Shown here in pieces: positions 10,373-36,270 of a stretch of DNA of 64,000 bases. Origin of the DNA: Thermoanaerobaculia bacterium (lineage in GTDB: Bacteria > Acidobacteriota > Thermoanaerobaculia > Gp7-AA8); the NCBI GenBank assembly GCA_034665065.1, contig JAXDGL010000008.1, positions 319,412 through 383,411 of the forward strand, read 5' to 3'. Within the stretch, counting starts at the first letter, position 1. Each line of letters opens with the position of its first letter. Below the pieces are notes generated by a model, which made no database searches, was not told the DNA's origin, and was given only the letters and a program-made list of their open reading frames with translations. Position numbers and translations under genes: made by a program.

Positions 10373-10416
10373 AAATCATAAAAGACGTTGTCGGTTTTCG
10401 GTTGTCAGTTGTCTGC

Positions 10417-14335: not shown

Positions 14336-14371
14336 ACTTTTGATTCTCTTCTTCGGAGGGAAGGAGTCGTC

Positions 14372-16861: not shown

Positions 16862-16961
16862 TCACTCTTGTTGCCGTTCACCGTCCCACCAATAATGATT
16901 AGCCGCTGCCGAACTCATAGCTGGCTCGCACGACGCGTCGCTTTCCGCGATAATCCATGTT

Positions 16962-17921
16962 GTGATGGACACCCTCGAAGATAAGGCGCGCATCCTGCTG
17001 GAGGCCGCCGAACAGGCCGGCTGGTCCGATGCACCAAGCATTGTTCAGAGAGTTAAAGGCCTTCAACGCGGGATTCCGGCGGAAGATGAATTGTCCGTCA
17101 TCCTACACTGGCTGGGACGCTGCAAACTAGTACACAAGTTAGATCAGACGCAATACCCTGCAACGTCTCGTGCGCAATGGCGAGTTCCCGACCTGCTCGC
17201 TTTTTTCGATTACGGCGGTCATACAGTTCCTGTGCTGATCGAAGTCAAGCGTACGAAGCGAGACAAGCTAAAGTGGAAGCGCCAATATCTTGAGAGCCTC
17301 CAGTCGTATTCCGAAGCCGTCGGAATCCCTCTCTTAATCGCGTGGAAGTTCGCGTCGCTGTGGTGCTTGTTCGAGCCGTGTCACTTCCGGCTCGCTCATA
17401 CCAATCTCCACGCCAGATTCTTAGATGTCATGCCTCACACGTTAATGAGTGTCCTGGCGGGCGACTTTTCCTTTGCCCTTCATCCCGGGGTCGCGTGGCA
17501 TCTGCACTGGCGCAAGTTAAAGAACACCGGTCCCCAAGGCTGGCATCTTCAGGTTGAACGATCGTACGTGACCAACGTGGCTGGTAACGAAGTTCAATCT
17601 GCACCAGGCATTTTGCCGCTCCTCGCGTGCTTTCCAAATTACTCCGAACATAGGCATACACGAACACATATCCATCAAACGTTCACGGTACCAAGTGGTG
17701 GGGCCGCCGAATTCGCCCACCGTTGCCTCAGTCAACTCGTCGCCGTGTTCGGCGGCCGCGATAGACCGAAGAGCTGGCGCGCGTATCTTCAAGGCACGCG
17801 GCTGCCCACGCTCGCCGAAAACTTCCACGACACCGTTCATAACCTCGGTTCCGGATTTGTACATCACCTTTTCCGCGTCAGACCCGTCGCCACTCCCGCG
17901 TTCTTGCCGAGGTCGGGCTAA
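16962..17921 (+). CDS. hypothetical protein, possible PD-(D/E)xK nuclease-like
   Basis: 319 aa. Markedly lower GC than flanks. PDLLAFFDYGG…VLIEVKRTK resembles a D…E-x-K nuclease core. Confidence 0.5.
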   Translation: MMDTLEDKARILLEAAEQAGWSDAPSIVQRVKGLQRGIPAEDELSVILHWLGRCKLVHKLDQTQYPATSRAQWRVPDLLAFFDYGGHTVPVLIEVKRTKRDKLKWKRQYLESLQSYSEAVGIPLLIAWKFASLWCLFEPCHFRLAHTNLHARFLDVMPHTLMSVLAGDFSFALHPGVAWHLHWRKLKNTGPQGWHLQVERSYVTNVAGNEVQSAPGILPLLACFPNYSEHRHTRTHIHQTFTVPSGGAAEFAHRCLSQLVAVFGGRDRPKSWRAYLQGTRLPTLAENFHDTVHNLGSGFVHHLFRVRPVATPAFLPRSG

Positions 17922-18092
17922 CTCCTCGGAGCATCCGGTCGCGTGCTTTCGTTGGCCCGGCGCCCGAGCCGCCTTGCGCAGCAGCCGGCGCGCTACTCTG
18001 CACTGCCGCATGAAGGAACGCGGCGGCTGAGCGAAAGAAACGTTCGCCATGCTAGCCGTTCGCGCACAAATCGTGCTTCGCCATCCCTCGCC

Positions 18093-19871: not shown

Positions 19872-19925
19872 TTGTAGTCTTTCAGTAAATACGTCGATGA
19901 ACTGCGGGTACCGCGGAAGAATCCG

Positions 19926-21701
19926 ATGATGACAACTGATCTGGCCGTTGCGCTTCGAAAAGACGGGTACAAAGCTGCATGGTTCGCCATCGCCATCCTC
20001 GCCGCGCTTCCGTTGCGTGCACAGACTCCGCCGACGGATGTTCTCCTCGATCAGATCGCGGGACTGGTCGACCGCGGCAAGGTCAATGTGCAGGTCGATC
20101 TGCAGGCCGGGCGCGCCGCGATCACTCCTGAATGGACGCTTGAAGTCGCCGGAACGCCGCAGGCCAGCCTCGCCATCGAAGCGGATCAGGGGCGGGTACG
20201 GCGCGTCGACATCGCGGTGACCGGCGGCGAGTTGCTGATCGAGGGCAGAGGTCTGCGGCCTCAACTTTCAATCGAAGGCTTTCGCTTCGAAGAGGGAAAA
20301 GGAATCACGGAGGCACGTTTTCGCGGCCGAGGGATATGGAGGCCGGTCATTGGGCTTTTCCGGACACTGGCTGGACCGGCGCTGCGCCATCTGGAGATCC
20401 CTACCGACATCAAATCGATTCTTCGCGGCGATCTCTTCACGTCGAAGAAAAGCTCGAGCGGAAGCACCGACTCATTTCTCGGGCTTGTCCGCGAGGTGCA
20501 CATCAACAACACAGAGTTCGTGGCATTCGCCGGCTATCCGCTCGGCATCGGAGAGACGATCGATTTGCGAACGGCTGCGCATCCCAGCTCGGGAACGGCG
20601 CTCCGTGCGGCGATCGACAAGGCGACGTTCCGCCCCGCGCGCGATGGACAACCGGCCCAATTCGAAGCCGATGGCCGCATCGACGGCGAGATCGAGAATG
20701 GCTCGGTAGCCTTCGTCGGCAGCCGCTGCACGTTCTCGCACGGTGAGCTGAAGGAAGGCGCATTCCATGCGTCATCGAGCAAGGACGGCAAGCCGGAAAC
20801 ATCCTTTTCCGCCACCGCTCTCACTCTCGATCTCACCTCGGGAGAATTCCGGTGGCCGGGCGGACCGAAGATCGGCGTGGACGCGCCGTCGCACTTCGCC
20901 GTTCGATCGCTTCACGTGCGTCCCGATGGACGCTACTCCGGTATCGTCGACGCCGCGTTGTTCGGAAAGGTCGGAGCCATCGAGCGCGCGGGAACGATCG
21001 TGTCCGCAAGGGACATCGAGTTGCGCACGCACGGAGCGACGATCGCCGACGGGAAAGCGACCGGCGACGTGACGGTTGCCTTCCAGTACCGCCTCGACCA
21101 CAAGCTCGTCGTCCGTTACCCGGTCCAGGAATTAGGCGAACGGCAGGTACCGCTGGAGCTTCAAGGATCCTTCGCCGCTGATTTCCATTTCAAGGATGCA
21201 GGAGGCGATGAAGGGGAAGTCACCGGTGCCTATCAGTTCACGATGCCGTGGGCGCCGGTCGAGAAGGCTGCGTTCGAAGTGCTGCGCGCGCGATGGCGGA
21301 AAGACATCGCGCCGGCTATTCGCGAAGTCGACTTCGTGATCGAGCCGAAGCGTTTCGGTCCCTGCGGGCGCGATTGCTTCCTTCTCGATGTCGTGCTGAC
21401 CGCCGAAAAGCCAAAGAAGAAAGGGTTTCTTTTTCAGCAGATCTGCAACGCGGAAGGGAAAGCAGCGCTGGTGGTCGACACGCCAAGCCGCAGTCTGCGC
21501 CTGAGCAATCTTCAGGTCGAGCCGCGATGCGAGGGCGTCTTCGGCATGTTGGTCGATTTTGCCGCGCCGTTTCTGATGAAGAGCTACAGCGACGTAACGC
21601 TCCTGCAGATGCCCGCCGATCTCCCCTTCACCATCGAGTCCGTCGGCACGGGCACAGACTCGATCTCCATCGGCGGAAAAATCGCGTTTGCGATGAAGTA
21701 G
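19926..21701 (+). CDS. secreted hypothetical protein
   Basis: 591 aa. Signal peptide AWFAIAILAALPLRAQ. No recognisable catalytic motifs. Confidence 0.55.
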   Translation: MMTTDLAVALRKDGYKAAWFAIAILAALPLRAQTPPTDVLLDQIAGLVDRGKVNVQVDLQAGRAAITPEWTLEVAGTPQASLAIEADQGRVRRVDIAVTGGELLIEGRGLRPQLSIEGFRFEEGKGITEARFRGRGIWRPVIGLFRTLAGPALRHLEIPTDIKSILRGDLFTSKKSSSGSTDSFLGLVREVHINNTEFVAFAGYPLGIGETIDLRTAAHPSSGTALRAAIDKATFRPARDGQPAQFEADGRIDGEIENGSVAFVGSRCTFSHGELKEGAFHASSSKDGKPETSFSATALTLDLTSGEFRWPGGPKIGVDAPSHFAVRSLHVRPDGRYSGIVDAALFGKVGAIERAGTIVSARDIELRTHGATIADGKATGDVTVAFQYRLDHKLVVRYPVQELGERQVPLELQGSFAADFHFKDAGGDEGEVTGAYQFTMPWAPVEKAAFEVLRARWRKDIAPAIREVDFVIEPKRFGPCGRDCFLLDVVLTAEKPKKKGFLFQQICNAEGKAALVVDTPSRSLRLSNLQVEPRCEGVFGMLVDFAAPFLMKSYSDVTLLQMPADLPFTIESVGTGTDSISIGGKIAFAMK

Positions 21702-21850
21702 GTCCTCGTTGGCGGATACTGCGTGTGGGACGTACCGAATCGCGGATCGCCCGACACGATCGATGCGCTTGACCGCTGCACGTTCGTCTGCCGCTGGGAG
21801 TTAAGCGGAGTGCCGCTCCATCTCGGACGCCATCCGAGTTTTCTTCGCGT

Positions 21851-21880
21851 CCTCCGCGTCTCCGCGTGAAACGGTTTTGA
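21851..21880. repeat. family C repeat (CCTCCGCGTCTCCGCGTGAAACGGTTTTG)
   Basis: Same ~30-mer recurs at 27131-27183 (as a full palindrome) and 36238-36270. Confidence 0.7.
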
Positions 21881-21893
21881 CTCTCTCGAAACG

Positions 21894-24797
21894 TCACGGC
21901 GGCCCGAACAGATCCTCCGGGATCTCAACGCGCGGCAGCTCTACGGAAACGCGCAGCGGGAGCGCGATGGGTGGCTCGACCTTCAGGCCGAGCGCCGAGA
22001 CAGACGGCGTCTGAATCTCTCGCTTGACTGCGATTCGCGGCTCGGTGCCGATCCGGATGGCGCTGCTCATCTGCAAGGGCACGAGGGTGGCGCGCGACAG
22101 CGCATGGAACGCGTCGTCGAGCGCGCGTCGTTGCGAGGACGGCATCGCGCCGAACGCAGCGACCGGCATCGGATGCGGCGACGTCGTGTGTACGATGCGT
22201 AAGTCTTTCGCATGATCGGCGAGCAATGGGTTTGATTCAGAAACGAGCGCGGCGTCCGTCCGGCCGTAGAGCGCGTTCGCGAGCGCGGTGAGATCGTCGG
22301 CGACGCGATTCGTTACGGTGACGCCGTCATCGCCGAGGGAGTCGACGGCGCTGATCATCTTGCCGCGAAGGTCGGGAAGAGATTTGGCAATGCTGCGGAC
22401 AGGAACGACGACGACGCGGCGGTAGGTCGTCCGGCCATCGCGGCTGAGGGTGTAGCGCGGCGTGAATCCACCATAGAGAAACTCCGGATTGGCGATCACG
22501 ACACCGACACTCTCGCTGTTCGCTTTGATGAACGCCCGCGCATCGTCGGCGCGGCGGAAGAGCTCCGTCTTCAGCGGGAGGGACGAGGCCGCGGCCAAGC
22601 TGTTGACGATCGCTGTGGCCCCCTCGGCGAGCTTCTTCTCGTTCTCCGCCGGTGAGTCGGGAAGGAACACGACGACTGTGAGCCGCTGCTGCGGCGCGCT
22701 CGCGTCAATCGGCAGGGATGACTCCTCGACTGGCTGCGCCGCCTCCAGATTCTTTTTCGCCATCGCTGCGAGTGGAGCGGGAAGATCGCCTGCGATTGCG
22801 CGCGTCAGCGCATCGCGCGCGGGAGCCTCCGAACCTGCGACGAGATCGGCGGTGCCGCGCAGAAACAGTGCGATCGATCGCTGTCGATCGCCCGTGGCGT
22901 TGATGCGATCGGCGATTTGCCGCGCGCGTCGCGCGGCCGCTTCGTCCTGCCGTGCGACTGCTTGATCGAGATCGGCCGCCGCCTGCGACAGAAGCGCGAT
23001 CGTCAGCGATTGACGGGCGCGGGCGCAGACGTCGGCCGCCGGGCCCAGAACGAGCTCGAGTGACGGACCGCGAGAGTTTCCCCACCCCGATGGCCTATCG
23101 CAACGGATCGCCGACAGCAAATCCGCTGTATCGTCATATCGCTTGTCCGCCATTGCCACTTCGCCTGCTGCGAGCGCAACTTCGTTCCAGTCAGCAAATG
23201 CCTTGTGCGCGGCCGCAAGGTGCGGTGACGCTTCAGGATTTCGTCCCACTTGCCACAGCAGGATGCCTGCATCGCCACGCGCAACCGGCGACGCACTCTG
23301 CGCGAGCGTTCGCGCCGCAGTCTCACGTTTCCCATCCAGCGCCTCGAGAACGGCGGTAACGTCCGGACTCGTGGCGTGCAGCGCGCGAAGCGTCGATGCA
23401 TTCGGATTCTGACGAGCATTGATGATCGCCAGCTCGTTGCGCAGCACTTCGCGTCTCGGTTCGCGCGCCAGAAGCGATTCGATCGCGGCGCGCTCTCCGG
23501 CGAGATCGTTGGCGTCGCGTGCAACCAGCGCGCGCTCGAGGGTCACGACCTTATTTGAAGGCGCCGCCGCTTGCGCGCGATCGAGGAGCGATTTCGCGTC
23601 GTCGAGGCGTTTGTCATGTCGCGCCATCCGGCCGAGGAGGAGCAGCGATTCGGCGTCGTTGGCGTCGAGTTTCAGAGCGTCTTCGAGTGACGCACGAGCT
23701 CCCGATTGATCGCCGCGCGCGAGCTGCGCACGTCCGAGGATCCGCAGCGCGGCGCGCTTCGAATCGGCGTCGAAATGCGGCATCCCGTCGTGCAACCACT
23801 TGATCGCCTCGTCGTGTCTCGCAGCGCGAAACGAAATCGTCCCGAGGTGCAGATAGGCCAGCGGCAGCGTCGCGTCGCTGGCGAGCGCTTTCTTGTACTC
23901 CTCCTGCGCGCGATCGTTCTTCCCTGTGGTGAAGAAAAGAAAACCGAGGTTGTAGTGCGCGGCGGTGGTGTTCTCGAGGCCGGCGGATTTCTGATAGGCG
24001 TCGATGGCCTCGTTCCACTTGCTCTGTTTGAGATAAATCGCGCCGAGGTTCGCGTAGGCGCGGGCGTGGATGGCCTCGACCGGTTGATGCTTCGCGAAGG
24101 CCTGATCGATCGGAGCCAGCGCCATGTGATAGGCGTCGAGCGCTTCGTCGTAGCGGCCGGCCTCGAACAGAACGGCGCCGAGGTTGTAGTAAGCGCGCAG
24201 CATCTTCTTGTCGAGATCGAGGGCTTTTCGGAACGCGGCGATGGCCTCGTCGTTTCGGGAGAGCGCGACGAGCAGATTGCCGCGGCTGAACTGGTATCTG
24301 GCGTCGTCGGGTGCGAGTTGCGTCGCCTGGTTGATCGCGGCGAGCGCATCGTCGTTGCGATTCAACGAGCGGAGAATCGTGGAGCGCAGGGCATGCGACG
24401 CGGCGTCGCGCGGGCTCTTCTCGATCGCCGAGTCCACGTACTTCAGCGCGTCTGCATGTTTGCCGAGCTGCTGTGCGGCCGCGGCTGCGTTCGAAAAAAG
24501 CGCGCGGTCGGACGCACCGTTGGCGATTCCGTGAAGGAACACTTCGTACGCCTCGGTCGTCTTTCCACGCTCGAAATAGATCGCGCCGAGGTTCATGTAG
24601 GCCGACGACAAGGACGGCGCGACCTCGATGACGCGCCAGTAGGCCGCGATGGCGTCATCGAAGCGCTTGGCGTCGCGCGCGCGATCGGCGTCTTCCATCA
24701 GACTGCGCGCGACTTCGGGCATTTCCTGCGCGCGCGCTGCCGGTGCGAGCATCGCAATCGCGATCAAAGCCGTGGCGAGGATGCGGTTCAGCATCAC
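21894..24797 (-). CDS. large TPR-repeat protein (secreted)
   Basis: 967 aa. Signal peptide. More than 10 TPR-like units (AYxNLGxxYxxxGxxxEAxxxYxxAL). Confidence 0.85.
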
Positions 24798-25556: not shown

Positions 25557-25748
25557 CCTGTCATCCTGAGCCGCCGATGTCCCGGCAGGGGCTGAGGACG
25601 GTCGAAGGACCCCTTCTTCGTGCCATGATTCTTTCCGCCGCCGCCCCTTCAACCAATTAGGGGGTCCTTCGACCGTCCTTCGCCGCCGGGCACGTACGGC
25701 GCGAGAGCAAAGAGTTGAGCGGGCGGCTTCGGCGGCTCAGGATGACAG
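25557..25748. repeat. MITE-like palindromic element, family B copy 1
   Basis: Termini CTGTCATCCTGAGC … GCTCAGGATGACAG. Inner arms GGTCGAAGGACCCC / GGGGGTCCTTCGACC. Second copy at 33621-33804. Confidence 0.8.
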
Positions 25749-25783
25749 CATCGGTGGGCGGCGCGGCGGAAAGTCCTGAGTAC

Positions 25784-26860
25784 TTACTTCGCTACTGCCG
25801 CGCGCGGCGCTTTATAAATCGTCAGGAATCCGGCGCGGTCGGTGACGATCACCGTGTTGCTCTTGCGGTCGTAGGCCATGGCGTAAGCAGCAACGCCGTA
25901 GAGCGAGGCGGGAGTCACGCGGCGGTTGCCGCCGGCAAAACCGCCATTCGCGGCGCAACGGCGCTCGGCGAAGAGGAGCAGGTCGGATGACGCGAGTGCG
26001 GCGATCTGCGCGCCGCTGCCTTCGGGGAGGCAGATCGAGTCGCTGCTGGTGAGATCGCCGAAGTCGATGGCCATGCGCATCTGACCGTTGGTTCCCGCGG
26101 CCATCTGCTTCACCGGCTTCCCGACGCTGATCGCTTTCTCGAACAGCGATCCGCGGCTGAGCGCGACCAGCGCCTGGTCATTCGCGGCGAAGAGCGCTTC
26201 CTCGATCGTCTTATCGGTTTGCAGCGGCTCGCGCGCAAGCTCGGCGAACGTTGTCGTGTCGTAAAGCGCGACCGAGGTTGCCTTCGTGTTGCCGAAGTCC
26301 TCGGTCGCGACGACGGCGAGCAACGAACCGTTCGCGCTCGCGGCGATCGCCATCGGATCGTCGAGGTTGATCGTGTGCAGCTCTTTTTCACCCTCGGCGT
26401 CGTAGACATGAACGTGGCGGCCGAGCGTGTAGAGATACCGTCCCTTCGGATCGGGAAGCGCGTCGCGGATTGGTTCTCCCTCGGTCGTGATCTCGCGGCG
26501 CACGGCGAGATCGGGAAGCGAGAGGATCGTCGTGCTCTCGTCGCTGCCGTTGGCGATGTAGAGGCGCGTGCCGGCGGCGTTGATGCGCATCGTTACCAGC
26601 TCTTTGGTCGAGGCGATGTCAACGGAGTCGAGCACGAGTCGCTGTTTGACGGCGCCCGTTTTCGGATCGATGGCCACGACTGCCTGCGGTTTGGCCACGC
26701 CGGCGTAGATCGTGCCGTCGTTGCCCACCGCGACGCCGTGCGGATCGCCGGGAAGCTCCCAGCGCTTGACGATTTTCTGGTCGCGCGTGACGACGGACGT
26801 GAGCGGTTGCGCGGCGAGAGGAATCGCCAGCGCGAGAAGCAGCGCGACGCTACTCGTCAA
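25784..26860 (-). CDS. YVTN/NHL-type beta-propeller protein (secreted)
   Basis: Repeated …GVAVGNDGTIYAG… / …RLYIANGSDES… beta-propeller blades. Signal peptide VALLLALAIPLAAQ. The start (TTG/GTG) abuts purS, so the exact start is uncertain. Confidence 0.65.
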   Translation of the reverse strand: MTSSVALLLALAIPLAAQPLTSVVTRDQKIVKRWELPGDPHGVAVGNDGTIYAGVAKPQAVVAIDPKTGAVKQRLVLDSVDIASTKELVTMRINAAGTRLYIANGSDESTTILSLPDLAVRREITTEGEPIRDALPDPKGRYLYTLGRHVHVYDAEGEKELHTINLDDPMAIAASANGSLLAVVATEDFGNTKATSVALYDTTTFAELAREPLQTDKTIEEALFAANDQALVALSRGSLFEKAISVGKPVKQMAAGTNGQMRMAIDFGDLTSSDSICLPEGSGAQIAALASSDLLLFAERRCAANGGFAGGNRRVTPASLYGVAAYAMAYDRKSNTVIVTDRAGFLTIYKAPRAAVAK

Positions 26861-27098
26861 TCGTGTACGAAAAATTCTCGATGACGGTGTTGGCGAGCAG
26901 CCGCTCGCACATCTGGCGAAGCTGGCGTTCGATTTCTTCGCGAGGCTGACCACTGTCTGCAAGCGTGACCCGAAACAGCTTGCCGGCGCGCACATCTTCC
27001 ACCCCTGCGAATCCAAGCGTGCTCAGCGAATGCTGGATCGCCTTTCCCTGCGGGTCGAGGACGGATGGCTTGAGCTCGACGATGACGGTGGCTTTCAT
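26850..27098 (-). CDS. purS: phosphoribosylformylglycinamidine synthase subunit PurS
   Basis: 82 aa. MKATVIVELKPSVLDPQGKAIQHSL…RVGKLF PurS signature. Confidence 0.85.
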   Translation of the reverse strand: MKATVIVELKPSVLDPQGKAIQHSLSTLGFAGVEDVRAGKLFRVTLADSGQPREEIERQLRQMCERLLANTVIENFSYTIDE

Positions 27099-27130
27099 GT
27101 GGTGATGATATCTCTCACAAAAGAGGAACG

Positions 27131-27183
27131 GTCACGCGGAGACGCGGAGACGCGGAGGGAAGTGCTCCGCGTCTCCGCGTGAA
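27131..27183. terminator. family C perfect palindrome
   Basis: TCACGCGGAGACGCGGAGACGCGGAGggaagtgCTCCGCGTCTCCGCGTGA between convergent/divergent genes. Confidence 0.6.
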
Positions 27184-27256
27184 AGCCTTTGCGGTTGTGT
27201 TAACCAACGAACACCCACACCGTATTAGCTCCCGAGTTTTCAATTCGGAGGGTTCC

Positions 27257-27763
27257 ATGAACGAAGTATTCATTCTGATTCCAATCGTCATCTCCATCGG
27301 CTTCTTTGCGATGGTGGCATTCATCGTTTGGGCCGCGACGAGCGCGAAGAACCGGCGCGCGGCGCTCCAGGCAGATGTCCAGACGCGTCTCATCGATAGG
27401 TTCAGCAACGCGCCGGAGTTCGTCGATTTTCTCAACTCGGATACAGGCAAGCAGTTCCTGACCGGCGTCGACAAGATGCCGCAACTGATGGCGCGCGACC
27501 GCATCATCGGCGGCGTTTCCCGCGGCGTGATCATCATGCTCCTCGGCGCGGCCTTCATCGCCATCTGGATCGCCGACAGCAACATCGACTTCATGTACCC
27601 CGGCTTCATCCTCATGGGACTCGGCATCGGGTTCTTCATCTCGACGCTGGTCTCGCTCAAAATGTCGCAGAGATTCGGACTGATCGGCGACGATACGCCG
27701 ACGCCGCGCGAGATCGTGAACCAAAGGCTCGACCGCCGTGATGCGACGGAAACGCAGGCGTGA
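27257..27763 (+). CDS. membrane protein (hypothetical)
   Basis: GGAG RBS. Predicted TM segments (IPIVISIGFFAMVAFIVWAA; IIMLLGAAFIAIWIA; FILMGLGIGFFISTLVSL). First gene of a sigma/anti-sigma operon. Confidence 0.6.
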   Translation: MNEVFILIPIVISIGFFAMVAFIVWAATSAKNRRAALQADVQTRLIDRFSNAPEFVDFLNSDTGKQFLTGVDKMPQLMARDRIIGGVSRGVIIMLLGAAFIAIWIADSNIDFMYPGFILMGLGIGFFISTLVSLKMSQRFGLIGDDTPTPREIVNQRLDRRDATETQA

Positions 27764-27848
27764 GGCGGACGTGTTCGTGGAAAATGCCCTGACCTCGCCG
27801 TTCGGAGCCTCCGTGCAAACGGCGGCTCCGCAACGGCCTCAACGACCG

Positions 27849-28346
27849 ATGGACGAACCAGCATTCGAGGCCTTCTATCGCAAGACGGCCGGAGGTATCT
27901 GGTCGTACATCTATCGGATGACGGGCGACGCGGCGATGGCGGACGATCTGCTGCAGAAAACGTTCTTCAAGTTCATCCGCAGCAATCCGGGGATCACGGA
28001 TGAGGATCACCTTCGCCGCTACGTCTACAGGACTGCGACGAATCTCGTCTTCGATCATTTCCGCGAGACGAAGCGGGAACGGACGCGCGCGCTCGATTGG
28101 ATTCCTGCCGAGGCGCGGCCGGATCGGAGCGATTTGCGGAATGACATGGCGCGCGTCTTCGCCGATCTGAAGCCGCAGGAGCGCGCGCTGTTGTGGCTGG
28201 CGCATGTGGAAGGAAATTCGCACGAGGAGATCGCCGAAGCGATCGGCGTAAAATCGAAGAGTATTAAGGTGATGCTTTTTCGTGCACGAAAACGGCTCGG
28301 CGAGATGTTGACGAAGAAAGGTCTGGCACCGGAGGTGACGCGATGA
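27849..28346 (+). CDS. ECF (sigma-70 family) RNA polymerase sigma factor
   Basis: Region 2 (DLLQKTFFKFIR…YVYRTATNLVFD) and region 4 (LKPQERALLWLAHVEGNSHEEIAEAIGVKSKSIKVMLFRARKRL). Confidence 0.85.
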   Translation: MDEPAFEAFYRKTAGGIWSYIYRMTGDAAMADDLLQKTFFKFIRSNPGITDEDHLRRYVYRTATNLVFDHFRETKRERTRALDWIPAEARPDRSDLRNDMARVFADLKPQERALLWLAHVEGNSHEEIAEAIGVKSKSIKVMLFRARKRLGEMLTKKGLAPEVTR

Positions 28347-28828
28347 CGGCGGAATGCGCATTCGAAGCGAACGTCCTCGACGCGGTCGCAAACGGTTCGT
28401 GGACGGAATCACTGCGCGCGCACGTCGCGTCGTGCGATGACTGCGCGGCGGCGGCCACGGTGGGTCCATGGTTGACGCAATTCGCGGGAATCGACGAGCG
28501 CGAGCACATTCTTCCCGATCCCGCAGTGTTGTGGCTGAAAGCGAAGTTGCTTCGTACCAGCTCGGCGGTCGAGCGGGCGTCGCTGCCGATCACGCGGCTT
28601 CAGATCGCGGCGTATCTGATCATCGCCGCCGGCTGGGCCGCGATCCTGACGTGGAAATCGAGCGCGCTTCAGGCCTGGATCGACCACCTCTCCCCCGGCC
28701 ACATGATCCTCGGCGCGACCGGTGCGCAAGCGAGCGCGTCGATCTCGATCAGCGTGCTCATCGCCGTCATCGCCCTGGCGTCAGCGACCGTCGGTGTGGC
28801 CATGCACACGATTCTGGCGGAGGAGTGA
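28343..28828 (+). CDS. anti-sigma factor (zinc-finger, membrane-anchored)
   Basis: 4-bp overlap with the sigma gene. HVASCDDC (HxxxCxxC zinc anti-sigma motif). A TM segment follows (IAAYLIIAAGWAAILTW). Confidence 0.7.
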   Translation: MTAECAFEANVLDAVANGSWTESLRAHVASCDDCAAAATVGPWLTQFAGIDEREHILPDPAVLWLKAKLLRTSSAVERASLPITRLQIAAYLIIAAGWAAILTWKSSALQAWIDHLSPGHMILGATGAQASASISISVLIAVIALASATVGVAMHTILAEE

Positions 28829-28872
28829 ACGTGAATCGTGAGACGCGAGCAACGCTGACTCCTCGCGCGTTT

Positions 28873-29082
28873 GTCATTCCGAAACGGCGAAACCGCGGGG
28901 GCGGACAGGGCGGTGGGAGCGGTGGAGCACGGAGAGGAATCCCCTGACGCTGGCCATGGCTTCGCTTCGTAGGCGGGGGATTTCTCATCGTGCTCCGCCG
29001 CTCACACCCGCCCTCCCACCCCCGCGGTTCCGCCGATTCGAAATGACAGCCGTGTTTGATCGGCCCTTTCGAAATGACAGGC
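28873..29082. repeat. MITE-like palindromic element, family A copy 3
   Basis: GTCATTCCGAAACGGCGAAACCGCGGGGG … CCCCCGCGGTTCCGCCGATTCGAAATGACAGC (+ second TTTCGAAATGACAGG tail). Inner GAGGAATCCCCT / GGGGGATTTCTC. Confidence 0.8.
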
Positions 29083-29115
29083 GGTGGCTGATCCACATAG
29101 AGGCGACGCTGCCCG

Positions 29116-29862
29116 TCAGAACGTCGCCCACAGCAGTACGCGCTTGAACGTGTAGAAATACGGCCGGTGCTCACCGAGCTGTTTGACCAGTCGCTCGGTG
29201 TACTGAGCGAGAAACTCTTCGTAGCGTTCGTCTGCGAGCGCTTCGCGATACGGCGTCAATGTCGAGCCCTTCGTCCATTCGACGACATCACGCGTTGACG
29301 GCAGCACGTGGCCGTAGACCTGAAGCCGCACGTGTTGCCGCGCGAAACCGATGTGATGCAGCAGCGAGGCATAGCGCTCGGGTAGCAGCACGTTGACTGT
29401 GCGCGGCTCGATGCCGAACGACGCCGCGAGCTCGGCGGCGATGCGATGCGAAGGATGATCGTGATTCGCAGGCATCTGCACGGCGATCTGTCCATGCGGC
29501 GCGAGAAGAGCGGCGAGCCTTGTGAAGAGACGCACGTGATCGCCGATCCAGTGCAGCGCAGCGTTAGAGAAGACGAGATCGAATGGACGATCAGCGACGA
29601 AGCCCTCGATCTTGCCACGCTGGAAGTGCAGCACTTCGGAGTCGAACGAATTCGATTTCAATAGCATCGTCTCCGAGCTGTCGATCCCGATCGTCTCCTC
29701 GGCGGCGAGATTTTCGTGCAGCGCGCGCGTCAGCTCGCCCGTGCCGCAACCGAGGTCGACGACGCGCATGCGTGGCCGCCGCTCGATCAGCGCGACAAGA
29801 TCGTGAAACGGCAGCGCGCGCTCGTCTTTGAATCGTTCGTATTGCGTTGGATCCCAGCTCAC
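29116..29862 (-). CDS. tam: trans-aconitate 2-methyltransferase
   Basis: VSWDPTQYERFKDERALPFHDL…VVDLGCGTGELT (SAM-binding) …FDLVFSNAALHW. GTG start overlaps the upstream gene stop (GTGA). The remainder of ORF 29116..31026 is an Arg-rich artefact. Confidence 0.8.
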   Translation of the reverse strand: MSWDPTQYERFKDERALPFHDLVALIERRPRMRVVDLGCGTGELTRALHENLAAEETIGIDSSETMLLKSNSFDSEVLHFQRGKIEGFVADRPFDLVFSNAALHWIGDHVRLFTRLAALLAPHGQIAVQMPANHDHPSHRIAAELAASFGIEPRTVNVLLPERYASLLHHIGFARQHVRLQVYGHVLPSTRDVVEWTKGSTLTPYREALADERYEEFLAQYTERLVKQLGEHRPYFYTFKRVLLWATF

Positions 29863-32747
29863 CTCAAGTGATCCCAATTCATGATCGCGTTCGTGACCAG
29901 CGCGTAGCTGCCTTGCGTGTTCTGACGCCACATCGGATTGTTGGCGAAGAGGAGGATGTGGCCTTTGCCGCGCGGACAATCGATGACGAGCGGTTTGCCG
30001 GCGATCTCGTCCCCGCCTTCGAGCATGCCGGACATCAAGAGTTGGTCCGCTTGCTTCGCGAACGACACGATGACGCGCGGCCGATCCTCGGCGCGGATCT
30101 GTGCGTAGTCGGAGTTCCATGGCGCGTCTTCGGGCGTTTGAAATCCTTCCTCGCCTGGCGCCGGCTTCGGACGTTCCGGCATCGGCGTGAAGGTGCGGCC
30201 TTGCGCGATGTCGGGATCGTTCTTGCCGCCGCGCCCACTCGGACGTGACTCCGGTGGTGGCGCATTCTGACCGACCTGGAAAATTGGCGATCCGGCGTAG
30301 TAGACCGGCATCGTGTCGTCGTAGCCGGCGGCGATCGGACTCTTTTTGTCGGTGATCGATGCGAGAAGGATCGTGCCCGGCGCGCGCAGTTTCTGCGGCT
30401 CGATCACGCGGACCCATCGCGCCAGTCCGTACTGCACGGCCCAGACCGACGTGTCGCGCGCGGTGATCAGCAGGCCGCCCTCTTCGACGAAGCGCGTCAG
30501 GTGATCGACGCCGGAGAGGCCGAGGCCGGGACGCATGTCGTCGGTTTCGTCGATGCCGCCGAGGTTTGGCGTGATCTCGGTCTTGTGCCACGGAAGAGGA
30601 GGGCCGGGTGGAAGGCCGTTCACGATCTCTGCGGATGAGTTGGAACCGCCTGTCGGCGCGAAGAGGATGACGTCGAACTTCTCGCGGAGATTCGCCGCCT
30701 TCGCCACTTCCTGCGTCGAGATGTAGGTGAAGGGGATGCCCAGCGATTCGAGTCCGAGGCGGAACCATCCTTCGTCCTGCGTGCGAAGCCAGGTGTGAAG
30801 GATGGCGATGCGGGGAAGGTGGAGCTCGTGCGTCTTCGTTGCGGCGGCGGCCGCTGCGGTCGCGACGACCGAGCCCGCGGCGTACTTCCTTGTTCCCGAT
30901 GTGAATGCCTCGTCCGCGATGAGCCAGCGAGCCTTGGGTGCAGCCCAAACAGCGCGCGCAACGCTGGTGTCCGCGGCGTTTTCGAGAATCAGCGGCGATG
31001 AGCTCTCGGGCGTTGATCCGCTCCACGCATGCATCGGAACTTTGAGCACGTCGGGATTCGCGACGCGTTTGAAGTCGACGTTCTTGAGATAGCCGAGCGT
31101 CCAGCCGGTATCGTCGTACACCTTCTCGTCGCTGCGGACGTATTGAATATCGAGCATCGCGTCGGCGAGGCGCGAGTAGGGCTGATCCATGCGGACGATG
31201 AAGCTGCCCTTTGCGAAGGTGATTGGGGCGTTTGGATCGGGCTTGGGTGCACGTAGGTCGGACTCTCCAGTCCGACTCTTTTCCGGCGTCGCTTCAGAAG
31301 TCTGTCGGACTGGAGAGTCCGACCTACGTTCCGCGGAGGCTTCAGGTTTGGGCGCTGGCGGCGGCCAATTCGCAGCCACACTGAATGGCGCATCAGACTG
31401 CTGTACTTCGACTCCGTGCGTGCGTAGAAGATTCATCAGATCGGTGAGCTGACCTTGTCGTTTCTGCGCGCCGTCGAAGACCCATGCTGCGGGACCTTCG
31501 TTCGCCGCTTTGGCCATCGAGCGCTTGCCGAGCAGGTAGAACTGATCGAGGAAATGCTGACGTCGATCGGCGAAGTCGGAGAGCGCGAGCAGCAGTCCGC
31601 TCTGCTGATAGTTGATGTTGTTGCGCAGCGACCACTTCACGGTGCTGAGGGGCGGATTGGGTCGGAACCAGGCGCGGTCGCTCTGTCCGCGCACGACGCG
31701 GTCGGCCGTGATCGGAAAGCGATTGCCGAACGTCTCGTAGAAACGGCCGATGGCGTTGTGTCCCTGGCCGGCCCACATCATGTAGTTCGGGGCCCAGCCG
31801 TCATAGAAGCCGTACGTCCAGACGCCAGGCAGTCCGCGTTTGGTCAGCTCCTGCACTTCATGCCACGCCATGCGCTGCCACTCATCGATGACGAGCGGAT
31901 CGAGCGATGGGTTGTACGGACCGGTGCCCGTCGAGATGTAGAGAAACGGCACCGACTCGTGAAGATCGTGGATGACCTGCGGGTGGAACTCGAAGAACGT
32001 ATGCAGCACGTTGCGGCTGAGCGCGAGGGCGAGGCCGAGGTTGTCGCGATTGTTGTCGTGGGCAACGTAGTGGCCCCAGTAGACGAGTGGAGGAACGGGA
32101 CGATTCGGATTGGCGTCGCGCCAGCGGGCGAGATCGACCTGACGGTCGCGGCCATCGACTTCGACGACGGGCGTGATGAGGACGATGACGTTGTCGCGGA
32201 TCTTGCGAATCAGCGGCGAGTCTTCGACGGCGAGACGATACGCGAGCTCCATCAGCATCTCGGGGCTGCCAGTTTCCGGCGAGTGAATCGAGCCGGTCAT
32301 GTAGTAGATCGGCTTGCCGGTGGCGATGAGCTTCGATGCGTCGTCATCCGTCAGCGTGCGCGGATCGGCGAGTCGTTTGGTGACGTCACGATAGCGATCG
32401 AGATGCGCGATCGTCTCGTCGGAGGCGACAGCGACGGCGATCATCTCGCGTCCTTCTTCACTCTTGCCGATCGAGAACACTTTCACGCGCGGTGACGCCG
32501 ACTCGAGCGCGCGCATATAGCGGTTCACATCCTGCGAGTAGGTGAGGTGGCCGTCCGCTCCCGCGATGTAGCCGAAGAATTTCAACGGTGTCGGCACGCG
32601 CGACGAAGCCGGCAGGTGATCGACCATCTCGGTCGTGAACTGCGGTCCGGTCGTGAACTGCTTGATCTGCCGCGTGTAGTCGGCGTCGTTCTGTTGCTGC
32701 GCAACGGCCGTTGTGGCGAAGAGAATCGCGAGTGCGAAGCGTTTCAA
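29859..32747 (-). CDS. M14-family zinc carboxypeptidase-like large secreted protein
   Basis: 962 aa. Signal peptide. M14 core context (…YYMTGSIHSPETGSPEM…VYWGHYVAHDNNRDNLGL…HDLHESVPFLYISTG). Confidence 0.8.
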   Translation of the reverse strand: MKRFALAILFATTAVAQQQNDADYTRQIKQFTTGPQFTTEMVDHLPASSRVPTPLKFFGYIAGADGHLTYSQDVNRYMRALESASPRVKVFSIGKSEEGREMIAVAVASDETIAHLDRYRDVTKRLADPRTLTDDDASKLIATGKPIYYMTGSIHSPETGSPEMLMELAYRLAVEDSPLIRKIRDNVIVLITPVVEVDGRDRQVDLARWRDANPNRPVPPLVYWGHYVAHDNNRDNLGLALALSRNVLHTFFEFHPQVIHDLHESVPFLYISTGTGPYNPSLDPLVIDEWQRMAWHEVQELTKRGLPGVWTYGFYDGWAPNYMMWAGQGHNAIGRFYETFGNRFPITADRVVRGQSDRAWFRPNPPLSTVKWSLRNNINYQQSGLLLALSDFADRRQHFLDQFYLLGKRSMAKAANEGPAAWVFDGAQKRQGQLTDLMNLLRTHGVEVQQSDAPFSVAANWPPPAPKPEASAERRSDSPVRQTSEATPEKSRTGESDLRAPKPDPNAPITFAKGSFIVRMDQPYSRLADAMLDIQYVRSDEKVYDDTGWTLGYLKNVDFKRVANPDVLKVPMHAWSGSTPESSSPLILENAADTSVARAVWAAPKARWLIADEAFTSGTRKYAAGSVVATAAAAAATKTHELHLPRIAILHTWLRTQDEGWFRLGLESLGIPFTYISTQEVAKAANLREKFDVILFAPTGGSNSSAEIVNGLPPGPPLPWHKTEITPNLGGIDETDDMRPGLGLSGVDHLTRFVEEGGLLITARDTSVWAVQYGLARWVRVIEPQKLRAPGTILLASITDKKSPIAAGYDDTMPVYYAGSPIFQVGQNAPPPESRPSGRGGKNDPDIAQGRTFTPMPERPKPAPGEEGFQTPEDAPWNSDYAQIRAEDRPRVIVSFAKQADQLLMSGMLEGGDEIAGKPLVIDCPRGKGHILLFANNPMWRQNTQGSYALVTNAIMNWDHLR
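31251..31329. repeat. perfect intragenic palindrome inside the M14 peptidase CDS
   Basis: ACGTAGGTCGGACTCTCCAGTCCGAC …31-nt loop… GTCGGACTGGAGAGTCCGACCTACGT. Translated in-frame as …RRSDSPVRQTSEATPEKSRTGESDLRAP…. Confidence 0.75.
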
Positions 32748-32901
32748 GGAGACTCCTTTTTGCGGCTGCGGGAGTAGCGAAGGGACTGCGGCCGCGGCTT
32801 CGGTGCTGGGGTGCGGTCCGCGACGCGAGACAGAGCTTATCGAGTTACAGCCCGCATCGAAAGGAATCGTTGCCGTCGTCCGAACGCCCGCAGATCATGA
32901 C

Positions 32902-33522
32902 TTACATCAATATGCCATTCCTCACGAAATCTGAGAGATCCTTGATGATCTGCGCAGCGGGCTTTCCGAAGGGCTCGGGGACGTTGAAGAGAATCTCGAT
33001 CGTGAAGTAGTTGAAGAAGACGCGCGAGGTGATCAGGAGAGCGGCAATCGGCGTGACCGACGGGCGAAGGCGTTGCTTGATGGTGCCGAGTGCTTCTTCG
33101 CCGACGAAGGCACCGAAGCGCTGGCCGAGGCCGCCGTAGAACCTGCGGATGTGTGTTCCTTCGAATTCGATGACGTCGACGAAGATCAGTGCGAAGTAGG
33201 GCTTGAACTCGCGGATGGAGTCGCGCGCGGCTAGTCCGAGCTGCTCGATATTGTCGGGAAACTGTCCGATCGATAACGCGCGCGTGTAGGGATAACGCTT
33301 CGTTTCCGTGATGCTCCAGAACTCGTCGAGCAGCGAGCGGAAGATCGACTCTTTGTCGGGGAAGTGATGGTAGACATTCCCGGTAGAGATTCTCGCTTTC
33401 TCGGCGATCTCGCGCACGGTTGTGGCGCGAAATCCCTGATGGGAGAACAACTGCAGCGCGGCGTCGAGCACCTGCCGCCGGCTGCGCTCCGACTTCTCCT
33501 CTCGTTGCATGGGCACCTGCAA
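32902..33522 (-). CDS. TetR-family transcriptional regulator
   Basis: N-terminal HTH RRQVLDAALQLFSHQGFRATTVREIAEKARISTGNVYHHF. Confidence 0.85.
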   Translation of the reverse strand: MQVPMQREEKSERSRRQVLDAALQLFSHQGFRATTVREIAEKARISTGNVYHHFPDKESIFRSLLDEFWSITETKRYPYTRALSIGQFPDNIEQLGLAARDSIREFKPYFALIFVDVIEFEGTHIRRFYGGLGQRFGAFVGEEALGTIKQRLRPSVTPIAALLITSRVFFNYFTIEILFNVPEPFGKPAAQIIKDLSDFVRNGILM

Positions 33523-33620
33523 TGATGACTGTCCGCGCGAAGGATAGGTTCAAAACGATGGCGCGCGTTAGTCCATCGCATTAATAGACGGACGCGTTGT
33601 TGGGTTTTCACACATCCAAA

Positions 33621-33804
33621 CTGTCATCCTGAGTCGCCGAAGGACACGAAGTGCCGGAGGACGATCGAAGGACCCCCTGCTTCGCCGCGACGGTCTTGTT
33701 GCGTCGCGTTTAGAGCAATTGGGGGGTCCTTCGACCGACCTTCGCCGCGATGCCTGCCGGTGCATGAGCAGAGTGGAGGCGCGGCTCGGCTGCTCAGGAT
33801 GACA
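33621..33804. repeat. MITE-like palindromic element, family B copy 2
   Basis: CTGTCATCCTGAGTCGCCG…GATCGAAGGACCCCC…GGGGGGTCCTTCGACC…GCTCAGGATGACAG. Collinear with the copy at 25557-25748. Confidence 0.8.
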
Positions 33805-33869
33805 GTGTCGAATGGCCGCGCTCTTGGTGGAACACCTCGCCTCTCCCTCCCTGTTCTAAACTCCGACTC

Positions 33870-36002
33870 ATGTCCATTCACGCGCGTGTCGACGCGCTCC
33901 TCGGGCGGCTCGCTTCCACGCCGCAGTTTCCCACGCAGGGTCAGACGATTTTCGTCGACCTCGAGCGTCAGGAAGTGCGGCGCGCCTACATCCCCCTCCG
34001 CGTCGTCGAATCGCTCCTCGGCGGTCGCGGCGTGAACATGTACCTCCTCCACAACCTGCTCGATGAGACGCTCGATCCGATTCATCCTCACATTCCGCTG
34101 ATCTTCGGCACCGGCATCCTGACCTCGATGGTGCCGTCGGCGTCGCGCGGCAATGTGACGTCGTGGTCTCCTGAGTCGCGCGTCCTGATGGATTCGAACG
34201 CCGGCGATTACTTCCCGTCGTTCATGAAGCTCAATGCGATCGATCACCTCGTGCTCTACGGCAAAGCTGCGAAGTGGACGCTGCTTCATTTCGAGGGGAA
34301 CGAGCCGAAGTTCATCGACGCCGCGCCGTGGGTCGGTCTCGACAACATCGATCTTCGCGAACGGATCGCCGCAGATTTTCACGGGGTCGAAGGGAAGGAC
34401 TACGGACTCGCTGCGATCACGACCGCGGGCGAGAATCTCGTCCTCTGCTCCGGCATCATGGCCGGTCCGAAAGCCATCTACGCGCGCGGCGGTCCGGGCG
34501 CAAAGATGGGCGGACTGAATCTAAAAGCAGTTTTGATTCAGGGGCGTGCCGCCGATCTCACCACCGCGCGTCCGCACAAACTGCGCAATCGCGACGTCGC
34601 GCTCAAGCTCCTCTCGACATCCGTCGTCAAGAACGCGCTGAAGAAACGCGGTACGCCATTCCTCTACAAACCCTCGCGCATGCTCGGCGCGATGGGAACG
34701 AAGAACAACCAGGAGACGACGTGGACCGATAAGCTCGACGCCGAGAACATCGACCCGTACCGTCCCGGGATGGAGGGTTGCTTCGCCTGTCCGGTGAATT
34801 GCCGTCCGCTGAATGACATGAGTGGGGGTGGGGAGTGGGGAGTGGGGAGTGGGGAGTCTTCTGTGCGGGAGTCGGGAGTCGGGAGTCGGGAGTCGGAGAG
34901 AGAAACCTTCGTCCACTCAGTGCGTGAACAGAAAGCAGAACTAGAGAGCGGAGAGCGTGAGAATGTTGACGCGCTGCATTCCGCTCCGACCCTCGACTCC
35001 CGAAAACCGACTCCCGCGCCAGACAAATACATCAAAGGCGACGGCCCCGAGTACGTCACGCTCGGCAAGTTCGGACCGAACATCGGCATCAGCGAAGTCA
35101 CGCAGGTTCTTCGTCTCAACAACATCTGTAACGACCTCGGGCTCGATACCGCGTCCGCTGGATCTGCGATCGCATGGGCGATGGAGCTGTATCAGCGTGG
35201 CATCATCACAATCGAGCAGACGAAGCTCGATTTGACGTGGGGCAACTACGACGTGATCGAGCAGTTGTTGTTCATGATCGCGAAACGCGAGGGGATCGGT
35301 GACGCCATCGCTGATTCGTCGCAGGCCGTGGCCAACGGCAAGTATCCCGCTGAAGCGCTCGACTATCTGATGGCGGTGAAAGGACTGACACAGAGCGATC
35401 CTCACGACGCGCGCATTCTCAAGGCGTTCGCGCTCGGACTCGCCGTTGCCACGCGCGGGATGGATCATCTTCGCAACCGCGTCACGCTGGAGATCAACGC
35501 CAAAATCAACGACTCGCCGGATTTCAAAGCGGAGTTGTATGGCGGCGCCGTGTCCGCGGAGCCGAACAGCTACGAAGGCAAAGAGATCGCTGTCCGCCGC
35601 TGCGAGAACATCTACGCGGTCGGCGATTCGGTGGGCATGTGCCGATTCACGACGAAGCTCTTCAACTCGCCGTCGTTGCCGGGCTATCCGGAGTTCGTCG
35701 ATCAGGTGGCGAACGTCACCGGCATCGAGCTGACGAACGAACAGATCGACCACATCGGATTAAACGTCATGGGCGTCGAGCGTCTCATCAATCAGAAGAT
35801 CGGCGTGACGCGCGCGGATGACACGCTGCCGAAACGCTGGTTCGAAGAAGCAATCGGGGTCGGTCCGTACAAGGGCGAGAAAATCGATCGCGGCGAGTTC
35901 GACAAGATGCTCTCGCGCTTTTACGAGATCTCGAACCTGACCGCGGAAGGCCTGCCGAAGCCGGAATGGCGCGAAGAGCTCGAAGAGGTTCTGGCGTCAT
36001 GA
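33870..36002 (+). CDS. aor: aldehyde:ferredoxin oxidoreductase (tungsten/molybdopterin AOR family) with ~70-aa in-frame repeat-derived insertion
   Basis: AOR N-terminal domain. 4Fe-4S Cys motif GCFACPVNC. AOR-like C-terminal domain. 710 aa, versus ~600-aa AORs recalled from memory. Confidence 0.85.
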   Translation: MSIHARVDALLGRLASTPQFPTQGQTIFVDLERQEVRRAYIPLRVVESLLGGRGVNMYLLHNLLDETLDPIHPHIPLIFGTGILTSMVPSASRGNVTSWSPESRVLMDSNAGDYFPSFMKLNAIDHLVLYGKAAKWTLLHFEGNEPKFIDAAPWVGLDNIDLRERIAADFHGVEGKDYGLAAITTAGENLVLCSGIMAGPKAIYARGGPGAKMGGLNLKAVLIQGRAADLTTARPHKLRNRDVALKLLSTSVVKNALKKRGTPFLYKPSRMLGAMGTKNNQETTWTDKLDAENIDPYRPGMEGCFACPVNCRPLNDMSGGGEWGVGSGESSVRESGVGSRESERETFVHSVREQKAELESGERENVDALHSAPTLDSRKPTPAPDKYIKGDGPEYVTLGKFGPNIGISEVTQVLRLNNICNDLGLDTASAGSAIAWAMELYQRGIITIEQTKLDLTWGNYDVIEQLLFMIAKREGIGDAIADSSQAVANGKYPAEALDYLMAVKGLTQSDPHDARILKAFALGLAVATRGMDHLRNRVTLEINAKINDSPDFKAELYGGAVSAEPNSYEGKEIAVRRCENIYAVGDSVGMCRFTTKLFNSPSLPGYPEFVDQVANVTGIELTNEQIDHIGLNVMGVERLINQKIGVTRADDTLPKRWFEEAIGVGPYKGEKIDRGEFDKMLSRFYEISNLTAEGLPKPEWREELEEVLAS
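34822..35028. repeat. intragenic heptamer-array palindromic element (GGGGAGT / CGGGAGT arrays)
   Basis: GGGGAGT x4, CGGGAGT x3, then inverted CTCCGACCCTCGACTCCCGAAAACCGACTCCCGCG. Translated as MSGGGEWGVGSGESSVRESGVGSRESERETFVHSVREQKAELESGERENVDALHSAPTLDSRKPTPAP inside the AOR. Confidence 0.75.
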
Positions 36003-36226: not shown

Positions 36227-36237
36227 CCTCGCTCCGC

Positions 36238-36270
36238 GCCCTCCGCGTCTCCGCGTGAAACGGTTTTGGC
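36238..36270. repeat. family C repeat copy
   Basis: CCCTCCGCGTCTCCGCGTGAAACGGTTTTGG. Confidence 0.7.

Follow-up and report, generated by a model that had tools for sequence, protein, structure and literature searches.

Repetitive extragenic palindromes (REPs) were split into a GTAG-tagged and a CGTC-tagged superfamily by Di Nocera, De Gregorio & Rocco 2013 (BMC Genomics 14:522; PMC3733652), whose account of the CGTC-tagged repeats is used here. Their families are CGTC-1 to CGTC-4, including dRS3 of Neisseria and RPE-4 and RPE-6 of Rickettsia. By this account, the repeats carry the tag CGTC, "changed to TGTC in many repeats", and have a stem of 8-9 bp starting with the pairs A-T and T-A, a loop of 4-5 nt (with exceptions in three species) and a short tail of consensus CCA. 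They are mainly found as head-to-head (HH) dimers, while tail-to-tail (TT) and head-to-tail (HT) dimers are rare; the spacers are 20-100 bp long and the dimers may fold into large hairpins. The repeats are reported there to have no associated transposase, and the phyla given for them in 2013 are Proteobacteria, Chlorobi, Bacteroidetes, Spirochaetes and Thermotogae. Copies inside genes encode the peptides VIPAKAGI and DSRFRGND for CGTC-1, VIAGLDPAIH for CGTC-3 and VIPWLDHGI for CGTC-4. Here we analyze palindromic elements in a 64,000-nt stretch of a Thermoanaerobaculia bacterium of the phylum Acidobacteriota (metagenome-assembled genome, GenBank assembly GCA_034665065.1, contig JAXDGL010000008.1, positions 319,412 to 383,411; called the window below) and compare them with these repeats.

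A preliminary description of this stretch, made from its letters alone, took the elements for miniature inverted-repeat transposable elements (MITEs) of two related families, A and B. Our conclusion, to which we assign a probability of roughly 0.7, is that they are not MITEs, and are REP-class repeats of the CGTC/TGTC-tagged superfamily that are arranged as HH dimers in the manner of REPINs (REP doublets forming hairpins).

Repeat copies and their stem-loop units

All five repeat copies of the preliminary description are real. They are non-coding and palindromic, and intergenic with respect to the JGI gene calls (metagenome 3300044807, contig Ga0467037_0000007). Four of them (A1, B1, A3 and B2) are complete palindromic elements and A2 is a half element. 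They are given below with the scores of a covariance model (CM), which was built from 42 long-loop units, relatives included.

A1, 10413-10564: HH dimer; units 10413-10468 (+) and 10510-10564 (-), spacer 10469-10509; CM 60.3 and 78.8 bits
A2, 13404-13459 (-): single unit 13404-13447, tag at the high coordinate; CM 24.9 bits
B1, 25558-25748: HH dimer; units 25558-25613 (+) and 25661-25748 (-, longer loop), spacer 25614-25660; CM 69.6 and 20.7 bits
A3, 28871-29049: HH dimer; units 28871-28944 (+) and 28975-29049 (-), spacer 28945-28974; CM 37.5 and 36.1 bits
29067-29080 (+): extra copy of the outer end of A3, TTTCGAAATGACAG, 17 nt past the dimer, matching RAATGACAG
B2, 33621-33805: HH dimer; units 33621-33677 (+; CM 60.6 bits) and 33721-33805 (-, longer loop, recognized by pattern only), spacer 33678-33720

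In each arm, a single stem-loop unit is made up of two halves, namely the outer end and the "inner stem". The unit reads (C)TGTC-AT-YCY-GA-GC-(variable hairpin)-GC-GA-RGR-AT-CC(C), and its stem-loop is 25 to about 85 nt long. Each element consists of two inverted units with the tags outward and a spacer of 30-47 nt (30, 41, 43 and 47 nt in the window), which results in palindromes of 150-190 nt. The stem is ATYCYGAGC / GCGARGRAT, with a tandem G.A/A.G mismatch conserved at positions 6-7; B-type units often end with GGAC, by which the first stem pair is lost. In this genome the apical part is a variable nested hairpin, so that the loop measures 30-60 nt. Eight of the nine window units begin with TGTC, the exception being the left unit of A1 with the tag TGCC.

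The outer ends of the elements are CTGTCATYCYGAG, and the inner stems reported earlier are confirmed (GGTCGAAGGACCCC / GGGGGTCCTTCGACC in B, GAGGAATCCCCT / AGGGGATTCCTC in A). The motif GTCATYCYGAR occurs 8 times in the window compared to 0.33 expected, a count that is reached in 0 of 100 shuffles, and RAATGACAG occurs 5 times compared to 0.71 expected. B1 and B2 align over their full length (identity about 75%), and each also aligns with its own reverse complement; about 30 extra bases are present in one arm, the same one in both. A1 and A3 likewise align with each other (about 60%) and with their own reverse complements, while A2 corresponds to a single arm and is followed at 13448-13459 by a tandemly duplicated end fragment, GAGAATGACAG. 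The arms of A3 are 73 nt long and 81% complementary. When folded as a single strand, each complete copy forms one long hairpin of -100 to -140 kcal/mol, with z-scores against dinucleotide shuffles of -7.0 for B1, -8.6 for B2, -9.25 for A1 and -12.5 for A3.

The gene contexts are of all kinds. A1 lies between two amidohydrolase genes of one operon, and B1 between purQ and a gene for a 358-aa beta-propeller protein, both of which run along the minus strand. A2 and A3 are located between convergent genes, A2 adjoining a (CAGTGAT)n hairpin at 13300-13385, and B2 is located between divergent genes of the TetR family and for an aldehyde:ferredoxin oxidoreductase. For the same strain, a contig assembled from short reads is broken within B1. 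The JGI gene call at 10369-11940 (523 aa) reads in frame through A1, and the paralogues of its product have 433-449 aa. Since a signal-peptide-like sequence comes after the in-frame ATG at 10567, the gene most likely starts there, directly after the element.

Covariation of the unit hairpin

Relatives of the unit were collected in three scans, covering IMG/VR (viral), GTDB contigs with one genome per species, and JGI metagenomes. The unit pattern left the three Y and the three R positions free to combine. It was found that the YCY and RGR positions are Watson-Crick paired in 93% of the viral set, 97.5% of the genome set and 99% of the metagenome set, giving four flavors of the unit (CCT/AGG, TCT/AGA, TCC/GGA and CCC/GGG). 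Family B represents the CCT/AGG flavor and family A the TCC/GGA flavor, and the two are thus compensatory variants of one unit. In the viral set, which is unbiased in this respect, GTCAT is preceded by T in 70% of the units and by C in 19%. The 3' tail is C-rich, from CC to CCCC, and its third base is not consistently A. The gap between the two halves of the pattern in the relatives is most commonly 5 nt (35 of 160), with a range of 3-33 nt and beyond.

For 42 distinct long-loop units, including those of the window, RNAalifold gives 13 pairs, 10 of which show changes on both sides. In the predicted unit structure 96.7% of the cells are paired compared to 80.7% in shuffles, and the covariation score is 0.536 compared to 0.238. 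None of the 500 shuffles reaches 0.536, and the score is at most 0.124 when the partners are slid by 1-3 columns. Because the pairs of the unit lie within one arm, this result is independent of the arm-to-arm complementarity of the dimers.

G.U pairs in columns 6/52 and 12/46 were considered as a sign of a strand-specific RNA and rejected, since they are an artifact of the alignment register that arises because B-type units carry one extra T. In properly registered triplets, T.G and C.A departures are about equal, so there is no wobble bias. Two likenesses of the GA core were also rejected: the CUGANGA spacing of the hammerhead is absent, as is the 3-nt bulge of the K-turn.

Copies along the contig

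The contig was read over the window, 7 kb upstream and 9.6 kb downstream, i.e. 81 kb of 453 kb. Within the window, a CM scan recovered the known arms and nothing else. A sixth copy, the A-type dimer A4 (L373:6951-7123), lies 34-206 nt before the first base of the window, between convergent genes and after a hairpin that resembles an intrinsic terminator. With the spacer counted in, A4 shares 81% identity with the reverse complement of A3; the two are 29 kb apart and in opposite orientations. As the likeness extends to the spacer, the copied entity is the whole dimer. The six sites fall within 34 kb, and none was found in the following 50 kb (the rest of the window and 9.6 kb beyond). The earlier extrapolation from the density in the window to hundreds of copies in the genome is plausible.

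Distribution and organization in other genomes

With 3-33 free middle bases, the unit pattern matches 3 arms in the window compared to 0.01 expected. It was found at 120 or more loci in IMG/VR, a slightly stricter pattern at no fewer than 120 loci in the GTDB contigs, and the long-loop version specific to this genome at at least 120 loci in JGI metagenomes (soil), on many unrelated contigs. Since many of the loci contain several units or dimers, they are not chance matches. The hosts in the genome set are Acidobacteriota (many Acidobacteriaceae, Terriglobia and Thermoanaerobaculia), Chloroflexota, Verrucomicrobiota, Bacteroidota including Flavobacterium saliperosum, Ignavibacteria, Lachnospiraceae and other Firmicutes, groups of the candidate phyla radiation (CPR), Delta-, Beta-, Gamma- and Epsilonproteobacteria, Nitrospirae, Omnitrophota, Armatimonadota and Abditibacteriales. 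The same unit ends are present in more than 10 phyla. The unit is also found on plasmids of Planktothrix, Gloeothece, Nostoc, Granulicella and Phocaeicola, where it is unannotated.

The organization was counted on 620 units from the fetched loci, with neighbors taken within 150 nt. HH dimers with the tags outside dominate (136 counts), followed by TT dimers with the tags inside (11 counts) and tandem HT dimers (10 counts), and the median spacer is 42.5 nt. The unit also occurs free-standing, often alone, and in arrays. Mixed flavors are seen in 16 of the 18 dimers of the viral set, in 14 of 31 for the genome set and in 10 of 83 for the metagenome set, and at loci other than the window A-type and B-type units are found together in one dimer. 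As mixed dimers are common, A and B are not separate elements. In this genome they share the first loop bases GAGNNGSCGR, which indicates their common descent. The relatedness of A and B that had been proposed is thus borne out. Common mobilization was proposed as well, and of this the part which holds is that both are very probably handled by the same machinery; mobilization of MITEs with terminal inverted repeats (TIRs) by a matching insertion sequence (IS) is unsupported.

In two Acidobacteriaceae-like contigs of IMG/VR (L067 and L115), single TGTC units all point in one direction along the contig and carry a conserved extra 5' flank, TTGCTTTTCGYT, before GTCAT. On the other strand, the ATGAC of these units gives ATG followed by ACNACGAAAAGC, which could start spurious or real open reading frame (ORF) calls.

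Comparison with a syntenic relative

The ENA contig GX_forest_Scaff3322276 (L250 below) is syntenic with the window from 10 to 33 kb, and its purQ protein falls into the same 90%-identity cluster. B1 is absent from L250, where the gap between the beta-propeller gene and purQ is 93 nt compared to 294 nt in the window. A3 is also absent, and the convergent stop codons are 6 nt apart compared to 287 nt. A1 is kept but has lost 42 nt by a deletion between direct repeats of GAAAC, and the gene caller again reads through the decayed element (507 aa). At the A2 site, L250 keeps one half of the dimer and the window keeps the other. From the absence of B1 and A3 and the decay of A1 and A2, we conclude that within the time separating the two genomes copies appear or disappear and also decay.

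According to the preliminary description, a B copy separates purQ from a displaced purS. The gene purS is located upstream of the beta-propeller gene, and L250 has the same order purS-propeller-purQ without B1; therefore, B1 did not displace purS. At the B2 site, the homology of L250 ends about 10 nt from the end of B2 and the genes upstream differ, which places B2 at a synteny breakpoint (window 33805-33830, L250 2200-2245). Upstream of the TetR-family gene, the window has genes for aldehyde:ferredoxin oxidoreductase, ThiS and MoeA, while L250 has two response-regulator genes.

The B1 slot of L250 holds a different small hairpin repeat at L250 9908-9945, and hence different repeat families use the same intergenic slot. 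This repeat is of the type GGGAACGCGGGCGTCCCGCCCGC / CCAGCGGAACGCTGGCGTCCCGCCGGCTGG, which is also seen in the window at 16276-16536. Another difference is a segment of about 5.7 kb (window 16204-21894), which is absent from L250, where the distance from the TonB-dependent receptor gene to the TPR gene is 206 nt. It contains an HTH_3 gene, an Hjc-like gene (Holliday-junction-resolvase fold), a gene for a thiamine pyrophosphate (TPP)-dependent enzyme and one for a 591-aa hypothetical protein. At the borders of the segment are a 37-nt inverted repeat (16276-16312 / 16500-16536) and a repeat at 21843.

Target sites, transposases and known families

Target-site duplications had been suggested as a check, and none is present at A1, B1, A3 or B2. 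For 134 HH dimers elsewhere, direct repeats of at least 4 nt were found only 0-2 times at any boundary offset. A search for an IS with the same TIRs gave none in the 81 kb of contig read or at the fetched loci elsewhere. No ORF of a Y1/HUH transposase was found by a search for the HUH and Y motifs in the flanks of the units, and when the 20,141 ORFs of these flanks (2.95 Mb) were searched by phmmer with E. coli RayT, none matched. Among the ORFs within 1.2 kb of units only common housekeeping and phage families recur, and no gene is recurrent between inverted units 350-2500 nt apart. The palindromes that flank RayT homologs on replicons and plasmids of Chloroflexota, Gloeocapsa and Kovacikia are GTAG REPs and not the TGTC unit. 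If a RAYT (REP-associated tyrosine transposase) were flanked by two out of a few hundred units in each genome, a few cases would be expected among 620 units and none was found, which is moderate evidence against such an arrangement as far as the flanks are concerned.

The elements have no match in Rfam at the gathering thresholds; at permissive E-values they hit only far sub-threshold models of miRNA precursors, i.e. generic long hairpins. Text searches of the literature with the DNA ends and the peptides encoded by them returned only unrelated primers, and the RepRanger 2025 paper lists Acidobacteriota genomes with no comparable motif.

Other features of the region

Long hairpins with heptamer arms are located in the intergenic regions of the window at 7258-7522, 8406-8600, 13300-13385, 34824-35017, 47722-47861 and 48689-48848. 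The arms consist of tandem heptamers and their complements, namely (GTTGTCG), (AATGTTG), (CAGTGAT), (GGGGAGT/GGGAGTC) and (GTGAAGA), and a period of 7 stands out compared to periods of 5, 6, 8 and 9 in all fetched loci. The arrays are reminiscent of the STRR heptamer repeats of cyanobacteria. They are not enriched near TGTC units, being within about 150 nt of 1.1% of the units and 0.6% of random sites.

A further dispersed repeat, CTCCGCGTCTCCGCGTGAAA(CGGTTTTG), is found at 21843-21879, 27156-27192 and 36232-36268, with 95% identity between the copy at 21843 and that at 36232. Similar strings, CTCTGCGTTAA/CTCTGTGTTAAA, follow TGTC units in Acidobacteriaceae-like viral contigs. The remaining features are listed below.

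14168-14340: cobalamin riboswitch (113 bits), directly upstream of a TonB-dependent receptor gene (14372-16204)
42719-42792: tRNA
57028-57121: tRNA-Sec (71 bits)
57375-62930: ORF for a repetitive Ig-like surface protein of 1800-1851 aa, with CarboxypepD_reg, TIG/PKD-like and dockerin matches
60732-61679: four tandem 237-nt repeats inside that ORF, 70-97% identical
L372 18528-20681 (same contig, about 7.5-9.6 kb past the window end): ABC-toxin / Tc-toxin-like gene of 3059 aa (ABC_toxin_N, TcA_TcB_BD, VRP1)

Alternative explanations and possible mechanism

We first consider classical MITEs, which would be deletion derivatives of a DDE-type IS, having the 13-nt ends as TIRs to which the transposase of that IS binds, and inserting with target-site duplication. 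Inverted repeats at the termini, a size of 150-190 nt with no coding capacity, an intergenic location in multiple copies, and presence/absence variation between relatives are all as expected for MITEs. The "TIR" is, however, a stem-loop that stands free elsewhere, often alone and in arrays, and unlike the ends of an IS it is the same in more than 10 phyla. As target-site duplications are missing at the four window dimers and the 134 others, and the 2.95 Mb of flanks show no transposase next to inverted units or between them, the MITE nature given in the preliminary description has become very improbable. Even less credible, to the point of being negligible, is a segmental duplication restricted to this region. 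All six contig copies do lie within 34 kb, with none in the adjacent 50 kb, but the flanks of the copies are unrelated and their identities are only 60-81%. The occurrence of the unit at at least 120 loci in each collection, with the long-loop variant on many unrelated soil-metagenome contigs, excludes it, and together with the presence/absence differences of L250 it agrees with the earlier view of a dispersed repeat.

A different explanation is that selection maintains each element in its place for a function as structured RNA or DNA, such as that of an mRNA stabilizer, an insulator or a protein-binding cruciform, with transposition having no role in the present distribution. Since A1 and B1 are within operons, transcription must pass through them, and the RNA hairpins predicted have an extreme stability of -100 to -140 kcal/mol. 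L250 has conserved A1 at the corresponding position, and the hairpins covary. Moreover, the REPs of E. coli are established to stabilize upstream mRNA. On the other hand, Rfam yields no family beyond generic hairpin noise, a palindrome provides no strand-specific signal, and there is no wobble bias to one strand. No T-run follows the hairpins of A1, B1, A3 and B2, which are therefore not intrinsic terminators. Convergent, divergent and co-directional contexts are occupied alike, B1 and A3 are dispensable in L250, and A1 and A2 are decaying by deletion. On balance we consider selection at each site unlikely, though less so than a MITE origin.

Several observations weigh against REP-class repeats of the CGTC/TGTC superfamily as well. 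The loops in the window (30-60 nt) far exceed the 4-5 nt given for CGTC-1 to CGTC-4 in the 2013 paper, and the tandem G.A stem is absent from the peptides quoted there for CGTC-1, -3 and -4. The window units by themselves are not thermodynamically exceptional (DNA parameters, z from -1.6 to +1.9), and among the window copies only the long dimer hairpin is outstanding in this sense. We account for the modest z-scores by the many G.A internal loops, which are penalized by the energy model; the support for the unit hairpin thus comes from covariation across relatives. The transposition step is argued by analogy. As the copies are 60-81% identical, there is no sign of very recent activity. Finally, the comparison of empty sites, also suggested earlier, succeeded in that B1 and A3 are absent from L250, but the two genomes differ there by more than the elements themselves. 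The 35-42 nt that flank A3 on either side and the surroundings of B1 are not the same either, so that precise insertion junctions are not definable.

Taking the elements as REP-class repeats, they may have spread via a single-stranded DNA intermediate, in which a nuclease or transposase that is encoded elsewhere and acts in trans would recognize tag and hairpin. This enzyme is apparently not a flanking RAYT. Precedents for the recognition of tag plus hairpin are RAYT on GTAG REPs and IS200/IS605 (PMC3116915, PMC6006769). At the RNA level, A1 and B1 would be co-transcribed with their operons, and their very stable hairpins could block 3'-5' decay or modulate translation, effects shown for the REPs of E. 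coli, or could mask the ribosome-binding region. From the end of A1 it is 3 nt to the likely start codon at 10567.

A more far-reaching proposal is that the units form one coherent, near-pan-bacterial family, in which tag and tandem-G.A core stay the same across more than 10 phyla and no transposase flanks the units. It would depend on a widely distributed single-stranded DNA enzyme other than a classical RAYT, or on a conserved host factor that recognizes tag and G.A stem, and the Thermoanaerobaculia form would be a derived one with an expanded and covarying apical hairpin. We regard this as possible and rather doubtful. Since the sequence of the unit is kept across many phyla and is abundant in soil Acidobacteriota, phylogenetic profiling for the missing enzyme of the CGTC/TGTC REPs, a large class of REPs, becomes feasible, a modest step that will not surprise specialists. 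In practical terms, the elements explain the over-long gene call, breaks of short-read contigs, and intergenic differences between close relatives.

Comparison with known repeat systems

When compared to the REPIN-RAYT system (Bertels & Rainey 2011; GTAG REPs of Pseudomonas and Enterobacteria), the elements likewise have two inverted units and a spacer that make one long hairpin, the whole doublet is copied, singlets resemble decayed doublets, and there is no target-site duplication. The differences are the tag, which is TGTC here and GTAG there, and that no RAYT was found adjoining the units. Correia/NEMIS of Neisseria, ERIC of enterobacteria and RPE-1 of Rickettsia are also imperfect intergenic palindromes of 100-200 nt that are co-transcribed with neighboring genes into long RNA hairpins. 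Correia elements, however, have true TIRs and a TA duplication and belong to one genus, whereas the present elements lack a duplication, have ends that are stem-loops in their own right, and are built of a unit found in many phyla.

The closest likeness is to the CGTC REPs as they are portrayed in the 2013 paper. An unpaired TGTC tag and a 9-position stem starting with A-T and T-A are common to both, and so are the predominance of HH dimers, spacers within 20-100 nt, folding into long hairpins and frequent heterodimers. The short C-rich tail of the unit resembles theirs in part. Both are intergenic, sometimes absorbed into the N-terminus of a gene call, and have no flanking transposase. Back-translation of the CGTC peptides quoted there gives starts of the GTCATTCC or GTCATTGC type, and the first 9 bases of the unit, GTCATTCCG, are those implied by the CGTC-4 peptide VIPWLDHGI. 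Set against the same portrayal, the unit has a stem with conserved tandem G.A (GAGC/GCGA), a loop from 3 to more than 60 nt (a nested hairpin of 30-60 nt here) compared to 4-5 nt, and a tail CC(C) compared to CCA. Its hosts include Acidobacteriota, Chloroflexota, Verrucomicrobiota, Firmicutes, CPR and Nitrospirota, which are outside the five phyla given in 2013. Judged by its sequence and organization, the unit appears to fit the CGTC superfamily and is distinct from CGTC-1, -3 and -4, which were compared through their peptides.

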